Below are positions 4,895 to 62,134 of a stretch of DNA of 64,000 bases, in pieces. Origin of the DNA: an uncultured Bacilli bacterium (GTDB taxonomy: Bacteria > Bacillota_I > Bacilli_A > RF39 > UBA660); assembly GCA_944363935.1 (NCBI GenBank), contig CALVVT010000073.1, positions 4,226 through 68,225 of the forward strand, given 5' to 3'. The notes below the pieces were generated by a model. It had not been told where the DNA came from. It made no database searches and saw nothing but the letters and a program-made list of their open reading frames with translations. The first letter of the stretch is position 1. The number at the start of each line of letters is the position of its first letter. The position numbers and the translations under genes are program-made.

Positions 4895-6937
4895 TTACTT
4901 TTTTAATATTTTTGGCCTTTCTAAACATAACATAGGTTGATTATACACTATCAATTGATGTTGAGCTCTAGTACATACAACATAATATAAATTTCTTTCT
5001 TCTTCTGTATAATAATTATCAGGTTTAGTATATGCTATAACGCCGTCAAATTCTAATCCTTTAGCTATATATGAAGGCAAAATAGAAATTTTGTTTTTTT
5101 CTATAGTATTTTTGACAAATATATTCTCTGAAGAATTAGCCACAAGTCTTTTGTGAAGATTAATTATCTCTTTATCGTCTTTTGTAATAATAGCTATTGT
5201 TTGCATACCATCATTTTTCATTTTCTTCAAATCGCTAATAATATCATTTATATCATTACTTTCTCTTTTTAAAACAGAAAAACCGTTTTTACCTCTAATT
5301 GAAGTGATATTATTAATATTTAAAATTTTACTAGCAAATTCAATTATCTCTGAACTAGATCTATATGTTTTATTTAATTCTATATAATTAGCTTCATTAT
5401 CAAAAATGATTTTTAATTCTTTTAATGATTTATATGTACTATCAGGATTTATAGATTGGTTAATATCACCTAAAATAGTGAAAAAAGCTTTAGGAAAAAT
5501 TTTCTTTAATATCCAAAATTGTAATGAAGAATAATCTTGAGCTTCATCAACAACCACGTGTTTAACTTCACTATTATATGGAAAATCATTTAACTGAAAA
5601 TAGATGTATATAATTCCCGTAATATCATCATAATATAATTTATTATTCTCTCTAATAATATTTTTCTCTTCTAAAAATCCTTTAAAAATATGAACAGGAT
5701 CAAGGTCAATATTTATTTTTTCATTTAAAATGTTTTTAATCTTTGTTTTATATTTCTTTAAAGGAACATTAATACTATGACAAATGTATTCAGCAATTTT
5801 TTCTATTCTTTCGGTAAAAGGTAATTTTTTATACTTAATCATTAATAAATCGTTTAATTCTAAATGATTAAAACAAAAGCCATTTAAAGTAATTCCTGTT
5901 TTAAAAATATGCTTTTTTAAATAACTATCAAGATATTTATCTAATTCTTCTTTTGTGTATAGGTTTTTTACTATACTCTCATTTCTTAATTCGTTATATT
6001 TACGTTTTAAAAAATCTGAAAATGTTTCTAACTTTTTATATTTTTTTAAATAAGTTTTTGCAATATCACTAAAAGTAGTATTTAAAACATTTTCTTCACC
6101 TAATTCAGGTAAAACGTCAGAAATATATTCTGAAAAAACATTATTAGGAGAAAATATTAAAATATTTTTAGAAGTTAAACCTTTTTCTTTATATAATAAA
6201 TAAGCAATGCGGTGTAGGGCAACAGAAGTTTTACCACTTCCCGCAATCCCTTGAACAATTAAATATTTATCTTTCGTATTCCTAATAATTTGATTTTGCT
6301 CTTTTTGAATTGTTGTAACAATATTTTTCATTTTATCACTTGAGTGAGAAGATAAAACTTCTTGCAACATATCATCATCAATATTAATATCATTTTCAAT
6401 AATTCTTTTTAATTTACCATCTTCGATTTTATATTGTCTTCTTAAGGTAATTTCACCATCTATCACTCCCATTGGAGCTTCATAACTAGCTTTTCCAACC
6501 GTATAATCGTAAAAAAGGCTAGAAATTGGTGCTCGCCAATCAAATATATAATTTTTATTTTCATTATTAAGACCATATAATCCTATATATACCTTAATTG
6601 TTTCATCCGGTAATTTAAAATCTATTCTTCCAAAATAAGCCTTATCTAATATTTTTTCATATTTAAATACTTTTTTAATTTTAGCATTAGTAATTTCTAC
6701 TTTAGCATCAGTGTCATTTAATAAATTACCATACTCAAGATCACTTAAGCTTTTACAATCATTCCATATATATTTTTTCAATTCGAAGATTTCCTGTTTT
6801 TCTTTGGTAATTTTAACATCAATTTCTTTAATAAATTTTTTTGCCACTTTTTTCACTTCAGTTAAATATTTATTTTCCTCTTTTAATGTATTATTATTAA
6901 CATTCATAGCATCACCTGTTAAATAATATTTTAACAC
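4895..6937 (-). CDS. helD: HelD-like UvrD/Rep superfamily helicase (DNA helicase IV / RNA polymerase recycling factor family)
   Basis: 680 aa. Walker A GIAGSGKTSVALHRIAYLL, DEAQD box (VVVDEAQDYS), UvrD-type C-terminal motifs and a HelD-like N-terminal domain. Confidence 0.75.
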   Translation of the reverse strand: MLKYYLTGDAMNVNNNTLKEENKYLTEVKKVAKKFIKEIDVKITKEKQEIFELKKYIWNDCKSLSDLEYGNLLNDTDAKVEITNAKIKKVFKYEKILDKAYFGRIDFKLPDETIKVYIGLYGLNNENKNYIFDWRAPISSLFYDYTVGKASYEAPMGVIDGEITLRRQYKIEDGKLKRIIENDINIDDDMLQEVLSSHSSDKMKNIVTTIQKEQNQIIRNTKDKYLIVQGIAGSGKTSVALHRIAYLLYKEKGLTSKNILIFSPNNVFSEYISDVLPELGEENVLNTTFSDIAKTYLKKYKKLETFSDFLKRKYNELRNESIVKNLYTKEELDKYLDSYLKKHIFKTGITLNGFCFNHLELNDLLMIKYKKLPFTERIEKIAEYICHSINVPLKKYKTKIKNILNEKINIDLDPVHIFKGFLEEKNIIRENNKLYYDDITGIIYIYFQLNDFPYNSEVKHVVVDEAQDYSSLQFWILKKIFPKAFFTILGDINQSINPDSTYKSLKELKIIFDNEANYIELNKTYRSSSEIIEFASKILNINNITSIRGKNGFSVLKRESNDINDIISDLKKMKNDGMQTIAIITKDDKEIINLHKRLVANSSENIFVKNTIEKNKISILPSYIAKGLEFDGVIAYTKPDNYYTEEERNLYYVVCTRAQHQLIVYNQPMLCLERPKILKK

Positions 6938-19854: not shown

Positions 19855-20250
19855 CTATGATAACTGGTATGGATTATTTTGACTCCCATTACCTCCAGTT
19901 ATTTTAACCGCTTCATTATTACTATTAGTAATACCAATAGTTTCTAATTTCGCATCAAATGTTCCTTTATTTTCGACAATAATACTATATTCTACATAAT
20001 CTCCTTTTTCATATAAATTAGCTTCTAAACTTGCTGATAAATCATTATAAGTGTTTTTAACATTTTCTCCCGTTCCATTTGTATCAGTTACGTCGGCACT
20101 TATTATTTTAATATCCCAAGTACTACTAATATCAGTTGTCCCCGTAATATTAATACTTGTTTTAAAAGCCGCATAGCCTATCCCCATTAAACATAAAATG
20201 CATATTAAAATAAATATAACAATTTTATTTCTTCTTTTTTCCCTATACAT
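19855..20250 (-). CDS. Small secreted protein of the GIGYAAF family (TasA/SipW-cognate-like signal; C-terminal GNGSQNNPYQLS)
   Basis: 131 aa, MYREKRRNKIV..LMGIGYAAFKTSINITGTTDISSTWDIKI. Paralogous to 38317-38664, 32982-35899 and 60137-62094. Confidence 0.75.
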   Translation of the reverse strand: MYREKRRNKIVIFILICILCLMGIGYAAFKTSINITGTTDISSTWDIKIISADVTDTNGTGENVKNTYNDLSASLEANLYEKGDYVEYSIIVENKGTFDAKLETIGITNSNNEAVKITGGNGSQNNPYQLS

Positions 20251-30443: not shown

Positions 30444-31550
30444 TTAAAATTTATTTTTATATAAAAAATATTTAGTATTAGCGACCATAAAATAACCATT
30501 ATAACTAGCTAATACTTGTTTATAATTAGATTTTTTTTGTTTTTTCAGTCGTTTTAATTTTCTTTTCACTCGTTTTTTAGTTTGATTATTAAGTAAAATT
30601 AATAATTTTTTTTCTTTAAGTTTAAACTTATATCCTAAAAAATTTACCCCTTTATTTAAATCATATATTTGGGTTTTTTTATTTAAAGATAACCCTAATT
30701 TTTGAACCTTTCGATTAATCTCTACTAAACACTCTTTTAAAAATTCTTTATTATGATGAATTAAAATAAAGTCATCCATATATCTTATATAATATTTAAT
30801 TTGTAATTTTTCCTTAATAAAATGGTCTAGTTCATTTAAATAATAAATGGCTAAAATTTGACTCGTTTCATTACCAATTGGCAACCCTTTACCTTTTTTA
30901 TATCTAGGCAAATAATTTAGTTCTTGAAACTTACAAAAAATATCTGGGATGCTTTTCTGTCTTAATTTTTCTTTTTCTTTAGCTATTAAATTATCAATCT
31001 GATTATTAATATATTTAGCGTCAGTACTGTCGATAATATTTTTTAAAACATCAATTATTTCAAAATCAGGAATATCTTTAATTAATTTTTGTAATAAAAT
31101 TTCATGATTAATATTATAAAAATACTTACTAATATCACATTTTAAAACGTATATTTGATCATAATTTTGTTTTAATTTATTAATATATTTTTTTATATAA
31201 TAAATACCTGCTTTAGTACCTTTACCACTTCTAGTAGCAACATTTGTTTCCACTAATTTAGGAATTAAATAAGGAATTAAAACATATTTACTGATCAAAT
31301 GATTAACTATTTTATCTAAAATTCTTTCACTCATAACTATTCGGTATTTCGGTTCAGATATTAAAAATAAACTATATTGTCCGTGAGTATAAGTTCGAGA
31401 CTTTAATAAGTACAAAATTTTAGTTATATTAGAAGAAAAAGCCAGTTCAAATCTAACTAACTTTTGCTGATGACAGGTATTTAAACGAATTTTATAATAA
31501 ATTTTCAGTATTTTATCTATTGAAAGAAGATTATCATAAGTTATTTTCAT
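30444..31550 (-). CDS. Diversity-generating retroelement reverse transcriptase
   Basis: 368 aa RT domain. Motifs: EPKYRIVMSERILDKIVNHLI, the DGR-specific GLPIGNETSQILAIYYLNELD (I/LGxxxSQ in place of the group II QG) and YIRYMDDFIL (YxDD). There is no maturase or endonuclease domain. Confidence 0.9.
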   Translation of the reverse strand: MKITYDNLLSIDKILKIYYKIRLNTCHQQKLVRFELAFSSNITKILYLLKSRTYTHGQYSLFLISEPKYRIVMSERILDKIVNHLISKYVLIPYLIPKLVETNVATRSGKGTKAGIYYIKKYINKLKQNYDQIYVLKCDISKYFYNINHEILLQKLIKDIPDFEIIDVLKNIIDSTDAKYINNQIDNLIAKEKEKLRQKSIPDIFCKFQELNYLPRYKKGKGLPIGNETSQILAIYYLNELDHFIKEKLQIKYYIRYMDDFILIHHNKEFLKECLVEINRKVQKLGLSLNKKTQIYDLNKGVNFLGYKFKLKEKKLLILLNNQTKKRVKRKLKRLKKQKKSNYKQVLASYNGYFMVANTKYFLYKNKF

Positions 31551-32182
31551 TAACTTTTAATACTTTCTAAAACATATTTATCGTTAATTTTTTTATAATT
31601 ATAAGTTTTTAAAGTTCCATTATCTAATATGTTATTTAAATTATCTTTATTATATTCACCGATATCATTATTATCTAAATTATAAACATTATTATCTTTT
31701 ATATAAGCAATTTTTACATTTAATTCTAATTTATTATTATCATTAGTATAACCATATAATTTAGACACATATTTATTTTCACAAGAATACTTTTCTCTAG
31801 TAATAACGTCATTATCTAAATTATAAATATAACCATTATAAACATAATTTTGAACATTTGGCGCTTTAACATCACCAAGGATTTTTTTAGTACTTGTTTG
31901 ATAATCTTTTAAAGAAATTTTATCTTTTAATAAATTATCCTTATTCATTTGACCAAAAATTAAATCTAAAAGACTTTTATCTTCTAATTTATCGACATTT
32001 CCATCATTAATAACCGAGCATTCATTAACAGCAATCGCATCATACAAATCTTCAGCAACCTCGTGTTTTACTAAATTGCTAAAAGTTTGCGCTAGTTCTT
32101 TATTTTTTACTATCAATATTAATACTGTAATTAACACTATAATAATCAATAAAATAATAATTATTACTTTTTTATTCTTCAT
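31550..32182 (-). CDS. Membrane-anchored hypothetical protein encoded between avd and the RT
   Basis: 210 aa with an N-terminal TM and an Asn/Asp/Tyr-rich ectodomain. It is translationally coupled to avd (11-nt overlap) and to the RT (shared nucleotide). Confidence 0.5.
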   Translation of the reverse strand: MKNKKVIIIILLIIIVLITVLILIVKNKELAQTFSNLVKHEVAEDLYDAIAVNECSVINDGNVDKLEDKSLLDLIFGQMNKDNLLKDKISLKDYQTSTKKILGDVKAPNVQNYVYNGYIYNLDNDVITREKYSCENKYVSKLYGYTNDNNKLELNVKIAYIKDNNVYNLDNNDIGEYNKDNLNNILDNGTLKTYNYKKINDKYVLESIKS

Positions 32183-32525
32183 TACTAGTCTCCCTCTTTC
32201 TTAAACCATTAATCATTTTTCTTATTTCAATTAAAAATCTACCAATAACTGTAAACTGGTGATAACTTATTATTTTTTTATCCAATGAAACTTTTGTATA
32301 AAAGTCAAGCATCGAAAGTTCTACTGATAAATCTTTTAAATATTTATCTTTAATTCGTATACTAGTATTAATGTTATAAGCAAAAATGTTTTTAATTAAA
32401 GAATAACATGTTTTTTCAATATTGTTTTTTAATACAATTTCTTTTTTAGGATAATTAATAAGTAATTTATTAATATAATTAATTGTTTTATAAGAATTAT
32501 TTAAAATTTTAAAATTATAATTCAT
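32172..32525 (-). CDS. avd: Accessory variability determinant (Avd-like four-helix-bundle protein)
   Basis: About 118 aa starting at MNYNFKILNN with RBS GGAGA (the ORF track extends it to 32558). The size, basic composition and position between TR and RT match DGR Avd. Confidence 0.65.
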   Translation of the reverse strand: MNYNFKILNNSYKTINYINKLLINYPKKEIVLKNNIEKTCYSLIKNIFAYNINTSIRIKDKYLKDLSVELSMLDFYTKVSLDKKIISYHQFTVIGRFLIEIRKMINGLRKRETSNEE

Positions 32526-32767
32526 TTTTTCTCCTTCAATAAGTGTGGCTGGAGACAAAAAGTCTCCACCACTAATATAGCGATAGTTATATAAATACTT
32601 TAATAGTCATATAACGTCTATATTATCTTTTTAGGCTTTAATCCAAGGAATTAACCTTGTTTCCAATCTAAATTAGATTATTGCTTTCGCAACTACTTCC
32701 TCTGGTTATGAGCCGTAGCCAAATAACATCACGGTTCATTAGTAAATAATCACTAATTGTAGTAGGA

Positions 32768-32877
32768 AATTGGGCGGACGCCGTTGCTATTCCAAGTATT
32801 AGTGTTAGTGAGCTCGCCCGTGGCAGTCACGTACATCTCATTAGCATTGAACCAATTGTTGAAGTTCGACGGCGACA
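32768..32877 (-). repeat. DGR template repeat (TR)
   Basis: 110 bp, 95/110 identical to the VR. On the coding (minus) strand it encodes SPSNFNNWFNANEMYVTATGELTNTNTWNSNGVRPI, rich in AAC/AAT codons, and ends in GGCGTCCGCCCAATT. Confidence 0.92.
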
Positions 32878-32981: not shown

Positions 32982-35899
32982 CTACGAAACAACAAATGGG
33001 TCTTCAATTGTTCCGCTTCCAGTTACTGTTAGATTTTCAGAATTTAGATTGATAACTGGGCGGACGCCGCGGCTATCCCAAGTACCAGTGAAAGTGAGCT
33101 CGCCCGTGGCAGCCACGTACAGCTCATAAGCATAGAACCAATTGCTGAAGAACGACGGCGACATGGTCCAGTATGTAGTTCCCGTATATAAATAATATAA
33201 AGAATTTACTGATCCATTTATTCCACCAGCCATATTTACTTCGTCAGCAGTGATTAAACCAACTGAATAATTTAATTTCTTATTTCCTCTATTTACACTA
33301 AAACTATCGTTTTCTTCACACATTAAGGTTGGTCCAAGTTTTCCTTGAGAGGCCCAATTCAAAAATCTTTCATATCCATATATTGTTGGATTTATTCCAT
33401 ACCCTAAATTATTATAAGTTCCACTATTTTTAGAAGATTTATTTCGGTTATTACAGAATACTGCATCTTTACTTATTTTATCATTAACACTTGTTAAATT
33501 ACTTTGATACCAACTATCTAGATAATCTTTCATAGTACTATCATTTACATTACTATGTGCTTCTTCCAAACTTGTCGTTCCATAAGCTTTTGCTTTTACT
33601 GTCATTGAAGTACTACTATTATATTTTGTTGTATAAAATAGTCTTTGACATGAAGCTGAAGCCGAAGTACTAAAACAGGTATAATATCCTACTTCATTAT
33701 TTGAAAGGGTTCCTGTATGTAAATCTCCTGATAATTTATAACCTCTACTGTTTTTATCAAAGGTATAACTTGTTCCAAAATAATATTTCGCACTGCTTGA
33801 AAGACTTGTATAAACAAACGTCATATCACCACTATCTGTTTCCACAAAATTATTAGCGTTTCCATACATATATCCTACATAAGTATTGTCATTGGTATAT
33901 GAATTAAAAGCACTTGTTCCTACCTGTCTATTACTACTTGCTTCACCATTGGTATAAGGTGTGGTTCCATCATATATCATTCTTATACTTCCATCACCAT
34001 TTACTCTGATTATTCTCCAGTACATATTATTAAATTTTACATAGTTTCCCCCAACACTTCCGCGGTAATAATATGTCGTTCCATCATTATCACTTCCAGC
34101 ATACATTCCAACTCCAGTTGTATCATAACTAGCGACTGACTGGGTATAATCATATTTTGTCATATTATAAGTTATCTGACCAGTTGAACTATTTGTACTT
34201 GTCGTTACATTAGTTATTTTGTATAAAGTCGTACAAGAAACATTTGTAGTTAAACAAGTATAATAATCTCCACTACTATAATCTATGCTTGATGGATCTT
34301 TTAAACTATAGCCTGTTAAAGTATATATTCCTGTTGTTTTATTAAAAGTATAGCCTGTTCCAATATTATCATAATATATATGACTATGAACCGTTGTATT
34401 ACTTGCATGAACTTCATTATATGAAGCACTTGGACTTGTAACCATAAAGTTTGGATTACCTTTACCTTCTATCTCTTGTTTAGCTAGTTCTATATTACTT
34501 TCTTTAGCTTCACTGGCTATTATACAATCTCCAAAATTATCTATATCATTATGTTCACAAAATGCTGCATGTCTTATTGTTGTTGTTTTGGCCATCGTTT
34601 CTGATATATTTCCAGCTTTATCTTTTACATATACTGTTACTAAATAATCGCCTTCTTCAAGAGTAGTAAATGTATAGTTTGGATTACTAGTTTCAACATA
34701 ACTTTTACCCCCATCTTTACTATAATAGTATGTAGATACTCCGCTTTCTTTATCATTTGCATCTACTTCAATAGTCATTGTGTCATCGTCTGGAGTTACT
34801 ATTACATTTGTTACTTCTGGAATATTACTATCAACATTATAATTATCTGTACATTTAATTTCTTCATTTCCTACTACATCTACGGCTTTTACACAGACTT
34901 TTTGACTATCTTTATTACTAGTTATTTGAACCATCCCTTTATTATCTGTAAGTTCTAGTTCTTTATCTGGAGTACAATCACTATTTCCTATACAGTATAA
35001 AGCTTTAGCTACTTTATCATTATCACTAACTTCAACATTTATATCAAGTCCCTTATACCAATTATTTTCACCTTTTATATTATCTCCCATTACTAATAAT
35101 ACTTTTGGTTTCGTTTTATCTAAAGTTTTAAATTTTGTACTAGAAAATACTACTTCTCCTTCTTCGTTTTCAGCTTTAACATAAAGCATATATTCTGTAT
35201 TTGGTTTAAGATTATGAATAGTATAACTATTATTATTTGTCTCATACCATTTATCATTATCTAATGAAAAATAGTATTTAATAGCATTTTCGGCGGTTAT
35301 TTTACTTGTTACACTTGTTTCATTTGGATTTACTTCTAAATCACTTATTTTAAATCCTTCTACTTCTATACTATCTGCATCTGAAAAATTAGTACTATTT
35401 CCTTTTTGAACATACTCTAATACTGTAGAAAAACTAAACTTTGTTTGTTCAGGTTGACTAGTTATATCTTCATTATATTTTAAAATAACATTAAACTTTT
35501 TTTCTGTTTCCGATAACAATTCTTCTTTAGCGGTTATCCCTTCTACCGAATATATAAGAACGTTTTGTTCTGGCGCATTTATTTTAATACTATCTAAAAC
35601 AGCATCTAAAGTTCCTTTATTTTCAACCGTTATTTCATAAGTTATACTATCTCCTGGCGCATAAAAGTTAGCTGTCATATTAGCCGTTAAATCATTCCAA
35701 TTTGGCTCTGTAGCATTTTCAGCATTGCCTTCGGTCTTTATAGTTTCAACATTTGTTATTCTAATATCCCAAATACTTGTTATATTACTGGTACCGTTAA
35801 TATTTAGTTTACTACTAAAAGCGGCATACCCTATTCCCATTAACATTAATAAACAGCATAAACCTAATATAACTACGTTGTTCTTTTTTCGTCTATGCA
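32982..35899 (-). CDS. DGR target: large secreted surface protein of the GIGYAAF family with repeated beta-rich modules and a C-terminal VR-bearing (C-type-lectin-like) domain
   Basis: About 972 aa from MHRRKKNNVVILGL (RBS AAGGAGG; the ORF track starts 34 nt upstream at 35933). N-terminus LMGIGYAAFSSKLNINGTSNITSIWDIRITN. The VR is 24-60 residues from the C-terminus. Confidence 0.85.
33055..33164 (-). repeat. DGR variable repeat (VR) at the 3' end of the target gene
   Basis: Encodes SPSFFSNWFYAYELYVAATGELTFTGTWDSRGVRPV. The 15 substitutions relative to the TR are all at TR coding-strand adenines (for example AAC to TTC, AGC or CGC, and AAT to TAT, GGT or GAT). It ends in the GC-rich GGCGTCCGCCCAGTT. 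Confidence 0.92.
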
Positions 35900-36002
35900 T
35901 AACATACCTCCTTATTTTATTTAAGTATAGCACATTTGTTGGGGGTAATGCAAGTATCTTATTTAGAAAAATATTATTTTATAAAATTATGGTGGTGGTA
36001 CT

Positions 36003-38316: not shown

Positions 38317-38664
38317 TCAATTTTGTAATTGATAAGCATTATTTTCTGAACCATCACCTGATATAATTTGTACTTCTGGAGATAATGTTACTGTATATAA
38401 GGCATAATCTCCGGGACTTACTAAATTAGTACTAAATGATGCTGTAAGTCCATTCTCATTATCATAACTTGGTTCTACTGCATTAGTTGCTTTTCCATGT
38501 AAGTTACTTTCGATATTAGTTATTCTTATATCCCAGTTACTACTTATATTACTAGTACCAGTAATATTAAGCATACTACTAAAAGCGGCATACCCTATCC
38601 CCATTAATAATAATATTGAACATAATCCTAGTATAATTAAATTATTTTTCTTTCTCCTATTCAT
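38317..38664 (-). CDS. Small secreted GIGYAAF-family protein (about 115 aa)
   Basis: MNRRKKNNLIILGLCSILLLMGIGYAAFSSMLNITGTSNISSNWDIRITNIE...SGDGSENNAYQLQN. The start was chosen at the M with an RBS (the track start 38727 is an extension). Confidence 0.75.
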   Translation of the reverse strand: MNRRKKNNLIILGLCSILLLMGIGYAAFSSMLNITGTSNISSNWDIRITNIESNLHGKATNAVEPSYDNENGLTASFSTNLVSPGDYALYTVTLSPEVQIISGDGSENNAYQLQN

Positions 38665-38881
38665 TTTGATTTTCCTTCCCGTCATTATAATAATAACAAG
38701 TATTTTTATACTTCCTATTATTACCATTTATTTAATTACTATACATTTACTTACACTATAACATTTTATATTACTTTTTGTAACATAAAATGTATTATAT
38801 TTTTAATGTAAAATTTACTCCCCTTAATTTTAAAGGAATTATATAGTGTAAAGTTGACAGAAAAAAAGATAAGCATTTAAC

Positions 38882-57936: not shown

Positions 57937-60072
57937 TTAAAGTTTTAAAGGATTTAAATCAATATCAATCATTATTTTACTTTTAACATATTTATTTTTA
58001 ATAAATATAAGTTCTGGAAGTATTTCTTTAGTATTTTGATACTTTATAATTGTTTGAACATAATAAACATTATTTACTTTAGGCATTATATTAGGACTTG
58101 GTCCAAGAATAATATAATTTGGAAATTTATTTCTTAAATAATTAGTGATTTTTTCGGCTTCTTTATTTACTTCTATTTCATTTTTTCCACTAACACTTAT
58201 TTTCGTTAAATTAAAATATGGTGGATATTTTAAAGCTTTTCTAATTTTCATTTCTTCTTTATAAAATTCTAAATAATTATGATTAGAGGCACAAACTAAA
58301 CTATAGTGATTAGTATTAAATGTTTGGATAATAACTTCTCCTGGTTTATCACCTCTACCAGCTCTTCCAGCTACTTGATTTAAAAGTTCAAAAGTTCTTT
58401 CACTACTTCTAAAATCAGGAATATTTAAAGTACTATCTCCATTTATAACGCAAACTAATGTAACATTTGGAAAATCAAGACCTTTAGCTATCATTTGTGT
58501 TCCTAATAAAATACTATATTCATTATTTTGAAAGCTATTGATAATTTTTTCATGTGCACCTTTTCTTTTAGTAGTATCAACATCCATTCTAATTACTTTG
58601 TCTGTAAATTCTTCTTTTAAAAGTTCTTCTAATTTTTCAGTTCCCATTCCTAATGCATTAATGTTTTTACTTTTACAAATTGGACAGGTATAAAGTTTAG
58701 GAACCGTATAATTACAATAATGACATTTCATACTATTAGTGCTTTTATGATAAGTAAGTGGGATATCACAATTAGGACATTTATGAGTAAAGCCACATTC
58801 TTTACAAGTGATTATAGTTGAAAAACCTCTTCTATTAAGTAATACTATTACTTGTTCATTTTTAGCTAATCTTTCTTTTATTTTTTCTTTAACTAATGAA
58901 GAAAATACTCTATTACCTTTTTTAAATTCATTTTTCATATCAGTTAAATATACTTTTGGTAAATTTTGATTTACTCTTTTAGTCATAGTAAGTAAAGTAT
59001 AAACATTCATTTTAGCCCTAGTAAAACTTTCTATACTTGGAGTAGCACTGGCTAAAACTAAAGGACAGTTATGATATTTACTTCTTTTAATAGCTACATC
59101 TATAGCATTATATTTAGGCGTATTTTCCTGTTTATAAGTTGAGGAGTGCTCTTCATCTATTATAATAATTCCTAAATTAGTAAAAGGTGCGAATATAGCG
59201 CTTCTTGCTCCAATAACTACTTTAGCTTCCTTCCTATATACTTTACGCCATTCGTCATATTTTTCTCCGTCATTTAAGCGACTATGCATAATCGCTACTA
59301 TTTTTCCAAACCTTTTTTTAAAGGTATTAACAACTTGCGGAGTTAAACTTATTTCGGGAACTAGTAAAATAGCTTCTTTACCTTCTTTTATTATTTTTTC
59401 TATTAATTTTATATAAACTAATGTTTTACCACTACCAGTAACTCCATATAATAAATAAGGATTAAATTCATTTAATTTTACTCTATTAATTACTTTTGTT
59501 TGTTCTTCTGTTAAAGGATAATCGTTATTAGTTATTTCTTCGTCTTCATTAATTCGGTATACTTCTTTTTTTATTTCTTTAACAATATTATTTTGAATTA
59601 ATTTATTTACGGCATAACTTGATATTTTATTAAGATAGGTTTTATCATTTTTTCCTTCTTTTATCAAATCATATATTTCTTTTGTTTTTCCGGTTAAATT
59701 TTCTTCTTTAACTATTTCTAATACTGTTATATATTTTTTATTAACTACTTTATTATTTTTAGCTTTTAAACCACTAGGAAGCATACTTTGATAACAGCTA
59801 ATTAAAGGTGATAATGTTTTTTTACTGATGTATTTACCTAGTTCTAACATTTCTTTATTAATAACCGGGTTTTCGTCAATTATTTCTTTTATTTCTTTTA
59901 CTTCATAAGTTTCATTAAAATCATTATATACTTTTAAAACAAAGCCCTCGATTATTCTTTTTCCAAAAGGTACTCTTACTCTTACACCAACTTTAGTATC
60001 TTTAGGAACTTTATAAGTAAATGTTTTATCGATATTTTTAGCCATTATCTCTACTAATACATCTGCATACAT
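57937..60072 (-). CDS. priA: Primosomal protein N' (PriA helicase)
   Basis: 711 aa with GVTGSGKT Walker A, DEEH and the Cys4 zinc-binding cluster (CKECG...CPNCD...CHYCN...CPICKS). Confidence 0.92.
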   Translation of the reverse strand: MYADVLVEIMAKNIDKTFTYKVPKDTKVGVRVRVPFGKRIIEGFVLKVYNDFNETYEVKEIKEIIDENPVINKEMLELGKYISKKTLSPLISCYQSMLPSGLKAKNNKVVNKKYITVLEIVKEENLTGKTKEIYDLIKEGKNDKTYLNKISSYAVNKLIQNNIVKEIKKEVYRINEDEEITNNDYPLTEEQTKVINRVKLNEFNPYLLYGVTGSGKTLVYIKLIEKIIKEGKEAILLVPEISLTPQVVNTFKKRFGKIVAIMHSRLNDGEKYDEWRKVYRKEAKVVIGARSAIFAPFTNLGIIIIDEEHSSTYKQENTPKYNAIDVAIKRSKYHNCPLVLASATPSIESFTRAKMNVYTLLTMTKRVNQNLPKVYLTDMKNEFKKGNRVFSSLVKEKIKERLAKNEQVIVLLNRRGFSTIITCKECGFTHKCPNCDIPLTYHKSTNSMKCHYCNYTVPKLYTCPICKSKNINALGMGTEKLEELLKEEFTDKVIRMDVDTTKRKGAHEKIINSFQNNEYSILLGTQMIAKGLDFPNVTLVCVINGDSTLNIPDFRSSERTFELLNQVAGRAGRGDKPGEVIIQTFNTNHYSLVCASNHNYLEFYKEEMKIRKALKYPPYFNLTKISVSGKNEIEVNKEAEKITNYLRNKFPNYIILGPSPNIMPKVNNVYYVQTIIKYQNTKEILPELIFIKNKYVKSKIMIDIDLNPLKL

Positions 60073-60136: not shown

Positions 60137-62094
60137 TTATAGACTTAACTGGTACGGACTTGAACTTGAACCATTCCCCGAAGTTATTTTGACATTTGGG
60201 GATAAGGTTGCTACAGGGCGGACGCCGAATGAAAAACCGCTACTTCCAGTAGTTGACATATTTCCTTTAGAAGTTATATAAATTGCAAAGGACACATATG
60301 GGTTTATTGTCCAATAATTTGTGCTATTAAATAAATAGTTTGTTAAATTACATTCATCATAATTATTACGTAACAAATTATTATTACTACATTTTTCAGT
60401 ATTAGAATTTGCCCGTAAATAATCACTAAAATTAATTAGTCCTACCTTTCCTTCCCATATATCACTATTTTCAATTGGAATAATTTCTTTTAATTCATAA
60501 TTAAACATCCCATTTTCATTTCCTATACCATAACCGTAATTAATTATTTGGTTTTGTGATAACAAGGTTAATTCATTACTATAATATTCTGTATTTAAAT
60601 ATGTATTTAATGTTGCTGTCCTCCATCTATCAGAATCCGCTTCATTCCATACCATATTATTAATAATATCTTTTTTTACTATTTTTATAGTGTTATCATT
60701 TGTATTAATTCGCACTATTCTCCATAGCTCATCATTAAAATTAATATAATTGTTTGGATTAGTTCCCCGATATGTATACACATTCTCTTCATATGAGTCT
60801 TTATATAACCCATCTCCACTTGTCACTAGTTGGAGACTATCAATAAATTCTTCCACTGTTTGTGGTATTGTTATATTATATGATGCACTTTCCATATTAA
60901 CACCATCACTTACTCTGGCTACTAATGTACCACTTTCCGTAAATTCTACTTCTTGATTTTGAGTTGCTGCAGTCCATGTACCATTATCTTTTTGATACTC
61001 GTATGTTAATCCTTCTCCTTCTGGATATGTTATAGTAACAGTTTTTCCATTATCTGTTTCTTCTTCACTAAAGGTCGGTACATTTAATTCTTTCGTACTT
61101 ACATTATATTCTTCACTTTCTACTTGTAGGTTATCTCTATTGGTTACTCTTACTTTTATTTTATGACTTGTATTTTGAGTAAGTCCTGTAAAGGTATATG
61201 TATTACTATCACCTGTTATATATTCCTCATTATCTATTTTATATTCGTATTTTACTATTTCTCCATCTTCTTCTATAGCTGTAGTTACAACGGTTATAGA
61301 ACTCGTTGTACTACTGGTACTTACATTATTTATAACTGGAGGCGTTGTATCTATTTTTCTAAATATCGCATAAAGTGTTACATTATTACTTGGCATACTT
61401 AAACTTTCTAAACCTACTGTTGCTCCTTTATCCGTATTCCATCCCATAAATTCATAGCCTGCTTTAGTTGCTGTATATTCTAAATTAACATTACTTCCTT
61501 CGGCTACATAATCATTTATAGCATTTGTGCTTTCTCCGCCATTAGTACTATAATCATAAGTTACATAATAATCATTAGCTGGTAAAGGATTATCACTATC
61601 TTGAGCTACATCTATACTTATATCTAAATCGACACTTATATTTTCTTCGATACTTGTTACATCACTATTAAATTCTACTTTAACTTGTAACTCTTTTGTT
61701 TCTTTACCTTTGATTACATCTCCTTTAGTTAGTCCTGATAAAGTAAAGGTTATATACTTATTTTCTTTATAATAAGTATTTATTTTCTCTATTCTCGCAT
61801 CTACACTTCCTCTATTTTCTATAGTTACTGTATATAATGCATAATCTCCAGGTCTTTTTAAACCAGTACTAAATGATGCATATAGTCCATTAGTATTATC
61901 ATAACTTGGTTCTTCGATATCTTCAGCTCCATGTAACTCACTTTCTATATTAGTTATTCTAACATCCCAGGTACTTGTTATATTACTTGTTCCTGTTATA
62001 TTTAATTTACTACTAAAGGCTGCATATCCTATTCCCATTAATACTAATATAGAACATAGCCCTACTATAATTAAATTATTTTTTTAGTTCGCAT
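60137..62094 (-). pseudogene. GIGYAAF-family large surface protein; paralog of the DGR target. The signal-peptide region is frameshifted at an A7 tract, a candidate phase-variable switch
   Basis: ATG (rc 62092-62094) with RBS GGAGGA gives MRTKKII then a stop. One extra A in the A7 run (fwd T7, 62079-62085) would give MRTKKNNLIIVGLCSILVLMGIGYAAF..., in frame with the 633-aa ORF. The C-terminus has FGVRPV and GNGSSSSPYQLSL. Confidence 0.7.
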
Positions 62095-62134
62095 AAAGCG
62101 TCCTCCTACTTCCTATTATATTTTTTTATCTTAT

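Follow-up and report, generated by a model that had tools for sequence, protein, structure and literature searches.

A membrane-anchored protein encoded between avd and the reverse transcriptase gene in one clade of diversity-generating retroelements from gut Bacilli

The usual cassette of a diversity-generating retroelement (DGR) comprises a target gene, a template repeat (TR), an accessory gene (Avd, HRDC, MSL or CH1) and a reverse transcriptase (RT) gene (Wu et al., 2018; Nucleic Acids Res 46:11, PMC5758913). A 64,000-nucleotide (nt) stretch of contig CALVVT010000073.1, from an uncultured Bacilli bacterium (assembly GCA_944363935.1; this stretch is called the window below, and coordinates refer to the whole of it unless a locus is named), holds a DGR of a different kind: its near-invariant avd-RT pair is split by a clade-conserved, translationally coupled gene for a predicted extracellular, membrane-anchored protein. 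What is such a gene doing inside a DGR operon? We use the working name X for this open reading frame (ORF) of 210 amino acids (aa; 31550..32182), and L- and P-numbers for the loci and proteins compared with it; all features of the cassette given here lie on the minus strand. X encodes a single-pass membrane protein of an uncharacterised family. Our answer, which we think has about an even chance of being right, is that X is a non-diversified surface cargo gene, probably a partner of large surface proteins.

X opens at an ATG, the first start codon following an upstream stop, and its N-terminus reads MKNKKVIIIILLIIIVLITVLILIVKNKE. The Shine-Dalgarno sequence GAGGGAG, read from the sequence at 32190..32196, lies 7 nt 5' of this ATG and within the 3' end of avd (32172..32558), with which the X frame shares 11 nt. 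At the other end, the stop of X and the start of RT (30444..31550) form TAATG, sharing 1 nt at 31550. Because the frames overlap at both junctions (11 nt between avd and X, TAATG between X and RT), X would be made from the same transcript as avd and RT. The upstream gene matches bAvd models (PF22296, 1.6e-12; phrog_3206, 6.5e-19; NF033474, 8.7e-14), its likely true start being the ATG at 32528, and the downstream gene matches models of reverse transcriptases (PF00078, 1.1e-18; phrog_1423, 6.3e-83). A preliminary description of this DNA had reported both overlaps, 11 nt with avd and 1 nt with the RT start, and the coordinates and the TAATG junction agree with it; it had also taken X to be nested in, and co-translated with, the DGR genes, which holds as translational coupling, as we infer it from the overlapping frames.

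The arrangement is restricted to one clade. With the window RT as a probe we found 410 relatives in genome contigs and recovered 80 related DGR loci (RT identity 44-71%) from metagenome-assembled genomes of uncultured gut Bacilli, 'Mycoplasma sp. CAG:956', Ca. Faecimonas and similar genomes. Five of the 80 have X; of the 75 that do not, 71 have avd and RT overlapping or no more than 14 nt apart. The order avd-X-RT is found with the long form of X in L011, L012 and L017 and with a 131-aa short form in L013 and L018, and look-ups of metagenomes and proteins add the same order in L091/L092, L093, L096, L097, L105 and L107-L109. A neighbour-joining tree of 85 RTs groups the 10 from X-bearing loci in a clade that has no other member. 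This indicates a single capture, in which X would have come to lie between avd and RT in one clade of chromosomal DGRs; the hosts are AT-rich gut Bacilli related to 'Mycoplasma sp. CAG:956' and Ca. Faecimonas. X and RT overlap by 1, 4 or 8 nt in eight X-bearing loci and are separated by a 1-nt gap in L017, and the translation of RT is probably coupled to X in this clade, as it would be to avd in the sister DGRs. Inside DGR loci X co-occurs exactly with a long, 912-984-aa form of the target; the targets of X-less DGRs are 320-770 aa long and share only their C-terminal part with the long form. X is not a general DGR component. The preliminary description had remarked that canonical DGRs have no such part and had suggested a survey of other loci, and both the survey, in which X occupies the same slot in one clade and is missing from 75 of 80 related loci, and the published accessory classes avd, HRDC, MSL and CH1, which include nothing like X, bear this out (Wu et al., 2018). 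It had further allowed that its claim would fall if X were neither conserved nor visibly coding: across related cassettes generally X is indeed not conserved, but in one sub-clade it is conserved and carries a coding signature.

That X is a genuine coding gene is evident from about 10 distinct orthologues in the same slot, from the ratio of nonsynonymous to synonymous substitution rates (dN/dS), from conserved cysteine and tyrosine residues and from a confident structural model. Between orthologues dN/dS is 0.3-0.6 for X, compared with 0.04-0.44 for avd and 0.10-0.24 for RT in the same genome pairs, ratios that are indicative only, with dS near saturation in most pairs and too few changes in the close pair formed by the window and L105; the higher values for X are consistent with a constrained but surface-exposed protein. 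Across pairs, amino acid identity is 39-59% for X, 68-87% for avd and 59-80% for RT. A first homologue search returned 22 proteins, all of them unnamed and free of Pfam domains. When 1.84 billion cluster representatives were searched with a profile, 119 matched at E <= 1e-3 and 85 at E <= 1e-10, and a second profile search added at least four further proteins (P0155-P0158). Family members are nearly all 43-381 aa long and come from AT-rich gut Bacilli; the single larger match, a 1373-aa eukaryotic protein, was rejected as a member, being a spurious match via membrane segments. The family has a long form (about 200-300 aa) and a short form (about 125-150 aa). Aligned with the long form, the short form is seen to be without X residues from about 57 to 133 and to keep the membrane helix, a short helix in which LY is invariant, and a C-terminal module of about 75 residues (YVSKLYGY...YxYxK...YxL). 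In an alignment of 70 divergent members Cys134 is invariant, and Cys55 and Tyr47 are at least 90% conserved.

An AlphaFold2 (AF2) model of X made with the family alignment is confident (predicted local distance difference test score, pLDDT, 89.6; predicted template modelling score, pTM, 0.76). It places a membrane helix at residues 2-35, followed by three helices and a three-stranded sheet in residues 40-131 and by a conserved beta-hairpin/helix/beta-hairpin module in residues 137-209, made of two long beta-hairpins, a small hairpin and a helix. The remote-homology search and structure prediction that the preliminary description had recommended give a confident model and no significant match to a known family or fold. 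Searches of Pfam, PHROGs, NCBIfam and PDB sequences with the single protein produced sub-threshold noise only, mostly driven by the membrane helix; a profile of the 70-sequence alignment found nothing in PDB sequences, the 70 members had no significant match in Pfam, and Foldseek with the X model returned nothing significant, the best being weak NTF2-like matches at E >= 0.045. No paralogue of X was found within the 64-kb window and no relative in viral contigs, and on the latter ground a phage origin of the gene was rejected. By these searches the family, of about 119 clusters, appears to be undescribed, and it carries no annotation in Pfam, NCBIfam, PHROGs or PDB.

On which side of the membrane would this domain lie? 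The codons for the core of the membrane helix (residues 6-25, V6-V25) occupy 32108..32167 and are preceded by those for MKNKK; hydrophobicity reaches its maximum, 4.0, at residue 6, and inspection of the sequence after the helix found no small-x-small cleavage motif. X is predicted to be an N-in, type-II signal anchor, with MKNKK as a short cytoplasmic tail, one membrane helix, and an ectodomain outside (residues 36-210, 31553..32077, secondary structure taken from the AF2 model). The positive-inside rule applied to MKNKK, the lack of a signal-peptidase motif after the helix and the conserved cysteine pair together would put all but about 5 residues outside the membrane. The two ectodomain cysteines, Cys55 (codon 32018-32020) and Cys134 (codon 31781-31783), suggest a disulfide and hence an extracytoplasmic location, and the ectodomain would then be a disulfide-stabilised alpha+beta structure displayed outside the cell. 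Asn, Asp, Tyr and Lys make up 48.6% of the ectodomain and 28.3% of the other proteins of the window, so that the composition of X exceeds what the AT bias of a 27% GC genome would give; its charge is near-neutral (28 Lys and Arg vs 29 Asp and Glu). The single N-terminal transmembrane segment and the Asn/Asp/Tyr/Lys-rich region of the 210-aa ORF had already been described from the sequence, and the ORF list, the AF2 helix and this composition confirm them.

The cassette that holds X is a bona fide DGR, with adenine-directed differences between its repeats and with a DGR-type RT and Avd beside the TR. The TR (32768..32877, 110 nt, repeat family D1) and the variable repeat (VR; 33054..33163, 110 nt), which lies at the 3' end of the target gene, are 86% identical, and 15 of their 16 mismatches fall at TR adenines. 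The product of the target gene (32982..35933, probably starting at the ATG at 35900) is a surface protein of 983 aa. It opens with a K/R-rich leader that has a hydrophobic 'GIGYAAFSS' signal; an immunoglobulin (Ig)-like N-terminal domain and Ig modules of the fn3/PKD/OmpL47 type follow, and the C-terminal domain, of the C-lectin type and with a 'GSGTIEDPFVVS' tail, bears the VR. Across the window the TR matches only itself and the VR, with no match inside X, and X was rejected as a second DGR target for want of any TR-like sequence in it. The locus is chromosomal; feoB and dcuC flank it, and a related genome has it in synteny. The GC content is 19.9% in X, 19.6% in avd and 20.6% in RT, compared with 30.6% in the target gene and 25.5-28.5% in the flanking dcuC and feoB; the avd-X-RT block (30444-32558) is uniform in GC and distinct from its surroundings.

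Homologues of X also occur outside DGRs. In four of the five non-DGR contexts with a resolved upstream gene, a large surface-protein gene precedes X on the same strand, usually overlapping it, and the homologues found beside large surface proteins span 26% to 56% identity to X. L002, from the same genome as L001, encodes a 976-aa protein with 72% identity to the window target. The 3' end of its gene overlaps by 14 nt the gene for a short X of 145 aa (P0016); RNase R and SmpB come next, and the locus has no TR, avd or RT. The VR-like segment of this protein shows 13-16 non-adenine differences from the TRs of the window and L001 and is at present a target of neither, and it was rejected as a trans target of the L001 DGR on account of 16 non-adenine mismatches to that TR. 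In L094 and L099, the 3' end of a VR-type target ('...GVRPVINL...FTGTGTMQDPFVVE*') is followed directly by a long-form X. L094 has no avd between target and X and no RT downstream, and its X is nested in the DGR-embedded X clade as sister to that of L097; here, then, X has kept its place beside the target gene even though neither avd nor RT adjoins it. More distant homologues keep similar company. A 250-aa homologue (about 30% identity) in L101-L103 overlaps by 22 nt the end of the gene for an 823-1028-aa Big_13/Y_Y_Y protein, and a 298-aa homologue (26% identity) in L106 lies 29 nt after the gene for a 5462-aa surface protein. Downstream of the L106 homologue are two proteins of about 205 aa with 'GFAAFTT' at the N-terminus, a multi-pass membrane protein, a signal peptidase, secG and RNase R; the peptidase is of the archaeal/SipW class (TIGR02228, 81.3 bits vs a cut-off of 51.85), and the second small protein shows 29-31% identity both to the product of window ORF 19855..20250 and to the window target's N-terminal domain. 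The upstream large proteins end in a C-lectin-type VR domain in the window, L002 and L094, in a Cys-rich region in L101 and L102, and in a different C-terminus in L106. That X recurs next to genes for large surface proteins suggests that it works with them at the cell surface.

Several observations on the assemblies concern the same loci. Several metagenome contigs with X homologues begin in, or immediately after, the repeat region upstream, two of them (L003:1-150 and L094:1-240) within a VR-like segment, which is consistent with population-level VR heterogeneity that breaks assemblies. Five independent assemblies (L006-L010) all end about 200 nt upstream of the short X P0008 and so give no information on the gene before it. 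The metagenome contig L095:1-470 (ULVL01008700.1) carries a 46-aa mini-ORF consisting only of a target-type N-terminal signal and a C-terminal tail (MKKKQYLLIGLVVICIFLMLGLGYALLSQNLEIQGTGMMQDPFVIE*), then an adenine-rich TR-like repeat copy fused to a normal target 3' end, with X directly next; this arrangement may be a product of TR x VR recombination or an assembly chimera.

From gene context, we infer that X functions at the cell surface with the target. Under this interpretation, X would most likely work there with the large surface proteins encoded next to it, including the 983-aa target, in a role such as membrane anchor, docking partner or assembly helper, loosely like that of TapA for TasA fibres; an anchoring or assembly mechanism of this kind is speculative and drawn by analogy. 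Among the functions that the preliminary description had offered, a second, non-VR cargo gene or an anchor fits best, with homologues that follow large surface-protein genes, including those of DGR-target paralogues, while an accessory factor is the least supported. A narrower version, which we consider doubtful, is that the X family docks or assembles large surface proteins with SipW-type (TasA-like) signals in cell-wall-poor gut Bacilli, and that one DGR lineage hard-wired this partner into its avd-RT operon. A number of facts weigh against a surface partnership in general. L004 and L005 have the order LysM-X-SDR and L098 a terminator hairpin followed by X and RNase R, with no large protein adjacent in either case; a paralogue of the window target (60137..62107, minus strand) has no X. 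The upstream large proteins share no single domain, so that no one binding partner is defined. All DGR-embedded copies of X trace to one capture, and their conservation in the cassette could be phylogenetic inertia. Finally, the adjacency could reflect only a shared need to co-express envelope proteins.

The explanation that competes most closely is one that we regard as possible, if on balance unlikely: X may be a neutral or independent hitch-hiker, an envelope protein unrelated to the DGR or its target and kept since its removal would uncouple the translation of RT. A passenger would be expected to show what is seen in the single acquisition on the RT tree, in the unrelated family contexts of L004/L005 and L098 and in the faster divergence of X than of avd and RT, and non-conserved ORFs nested in DGR cassettes are common (Wu et al., 2018). 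It would not be expected to have a large same-strand surface-protein gene upstream in four of five resolved non-DGR contexts, which, with homologues at 26%-56% identity, are not one inherited arrangement, nor to remain, as in L094, beside a VR-bearing target with no avd between them and no RT downstream.

X could also be a DGR accessory or regulator that tethers the TR-avd-X-RT RNA, or Avd and RT, to the membrane by co-translational insertion, or that gates RT synthesis, and so ties diversification to the status of the envelope. We consider this improbable, even though the position of X is strictly kept, with overlapping frames between core genes, in every X-bearing locus, and its GC content is like that of avd and RT and unlike the 25-31% of the neighbouring genes. 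The cytoplasm is where Avd, RT and the TR RNA do their work, as established for the Bordetella phage DGR, and with X outside the cell a direct role in cDNA synthesis or retrohoming is unlikely; X would take no part in either. The prediction leaves just 5 of its residues in the cytoplasm, conservation lies in the ectodomain and its cysteine pair, 75 of 80 related DGRs of the same avd/RT type do without X, and its homologues occur without any avd or RT. A further argument for an accessory role comes from MSL. An ORF of this class, MutS_I-like and of about 131-142 aa, lies beside avd or after RT in 47 fetched loci besides L001, which duplicates L011 (the same contig); examples are L001:7270-7665 and L091:5237-5665. 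The window DGR has none (32559-32767), tblastn found none anywhere in the 64 kb, and the window lineage appears to have lost it. X could in principle compensate for the loss of a gene carried by most relatives, but sister loci (L011, L012, L017, L091 and L097) hold both MSL and X, so X does not replace MSL.

Least credible is that X is an immunity, exclusion or receptor-masking protein directed against the cell's own diversified ligand-binding protein or against phage, for although a small membrane-anchored protein beside a variable binding protein superficially resembles toxin-immunity or superinfection-exclusion pairs, the target shows fn3, PKD and Ig modules and a C-lectin-type VR domain and no toxin domain, X has, in searches that did not take in the PADLOC defence library, neither relatives in viral contigs nor a significant PHROG match, and the locus, flanked by feoB and dcuC, is chromosomal and has a syntenic counterpart in a related genome.

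Returning to X as a surface partner, the target belongs to a paralogue family in the window (32982..35933, 60137..62107, 38317..38727 and 19855..20250, all on the minus strand) whose members share a K/R-rich leader with the N-terminus 'LMGIGYAAF(S/K)(S/T).(L/I)NI.GT' and the C-terminal tail motif G.G(S/T)...(P/A)(Y/F)(Q/V)(L/V); two tiny paralogues, of 131 and 136 aa, consist of the N-terminal domain and the tail only. We take the 'GYAAFSS' N-terminus of the target and its paralogues to resemble SipW-type signals, and the members of this family may be SipW-type substrates or fibre subunits. Homologues of the target N-terminal domain match PF12389 (camelysin/TasA) weakly in 8 of 21 cases (best 1.1e-5), and one carries a precomputed PF12389 match. 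A TasA-like fold for this domain was rejected: AF2 gives a generic Ig-like sandwich (pLDDT 82.7), for which Foldseek found no significant match in PDB and no TasA. No SipW was found in the window. In L052, a DGR without X, a sequence like SipW-class peptidases (5054-5344; 32% identity to that of L106) is found immediately 5' of avd, which may be a sign that SipW-type processing and the targets of these DGRs are more widely linked. The target-related 823-aa Big_13/Y_Y_Y protein of L102 (1679-4150) has a canonical prepilin leader, MKKKNGFTLVEIL (PF07963, 3.3e-7), and its near-identical counterpart in L101 has a 'GTYAWF' N-terminus, so that leaders seem to have been swapped on one protein body. 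The 633-aa window paralogue (60137..62107) has a C-lectin-like C-terminus without a match to the TR, and an in-frame stop in its signal region (...YAN*KNNLIIVGLCS...), and may be a pseudogene or have an unusual start; it lies upstream of the RNase R gene (57937..60072, minus strand), in synteny by tblastn with L002, which has a target-like gene and a short X at that place.

Between the TR and the start of avd, a terminator-like hairpin with a 9-bp stem followed by TTTTTG (32566-32586, minus strand) could be a structural element of the DGR RNA, an attenuator or a chance occurrence. In DNA so rich in AT, a scan for promoters and terminators gave no information: promoter-like sites numbered 48, where 45.9 were expected.

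How does X compare with what is known of DGRs and of small envelope proteins? Four accessory classes have been described, avd, HRDC, MSL and CH1; the first three have known or predicted roles related to nucleic acids and none of these is described with a membrane segment, and CH1 proteins are acidic, 160-169 aa long, without a motif and found only in DGRs that have no avd, HRDC or MSL (Wu et al., 2018). Like all of these, X is encoded in the cassette and co-transcribed with RT; unlike Avd, HRDC and MSL, it has a membrane anchor and a predicted extracellular domain, and X matches none of the bAvd, HRDC or MutS_I models of Pfam and NCBIfam at E <= 1, nor does any of 70 family members match one of these models. 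X is found together with avd and, in sister loci, also with MSL. Its length of 210 aa, near-neutral charge, membrane helix and constant association with avd set it apart from CH1 as described. DGR cassettes often have ORFs nested among their components, most of them not conserved (the 'X' architectures, PAG1-4; Wu et al., 2018), and X resembles them in lying between DGR components in a small group of related DGRs and in having no recognisable motif. Most of them separate the target from the core, however, whereas X splits the avd-RT pair and is translationally coupled to both; X is moreover kept in about 10 distinct loci, between which RT identity falls to as little as 59%, and its family of about 119 clusters also exists outside DGRs. 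The nested-ORF category is the best fit for X, save for its conservation in a clade and its splitting of the avd-RT pair, and the architecture target-TR-(MSL)-avd-X-RT does not appear to match any of architectures A-E as these are set out in the text of that article (PMC5758913).

The nearest functional analogy, and one without sequence homology, may be TapA of the Bacillus subtilis tapA-sipW-tasA operon (PMC9674648, PMC10151520). X, like TapA, is a small envelope protein encoded beside surface-protein genes, and the L106 homologue, at 26% identity, lies just upstream of two genes with TasA-like signals and of a SipW-class peptidase gene. Unlike TapA, X has a plain signal anchor and not a SipW-type signal, and it lies in a window in which no SipW gene was found; TapA/YqxM models are not among the Pfam and NCBIfam matches of X or of the L106 homologue. 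With the membrane-anchored NTF2-like scaffolds VirB8 and TraM and TraH of pIP501, X would share an N-terminal membrane helix and an extracytoplasmic domain of helix plus curved beta-sheet, and NTF2-like structures (4o3v, 4ec6 and 5aiw) are among its weak Foldseek matches, at E 0.05-0.3 and TM-scores of 0.2-0.4 that are not significant; it differs from them in having no type IV secretion genes nearby.

What is new here is an unannotated family and the order avd-X-RT; nested ORFs in DGRs were already known, and the capture is a single one, in a narrow clade. Our understanding of mutagenic retrohoming itself is unchanged by X. Should X be a hitch-hiker, it would serve as a caution that a place in a DGR operon does not alone make a gene part of the machinery. 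Should it instead be a docking partner, synthesis of a hypervariable adhesin, of the invariant protein that docks it at the membrane and of the enzyme that diversifies it would keep to a fixed ratio, and X would be the first DGR-encoded component to act on the display of the variable protein and not on nucleic acid. As a partner in display or anchoring, X would define a new protein family of about 119 clusters that has no annotation, and would shed light on the way in which little-known gut Bacilli fix hypervariable proteins to their surface.

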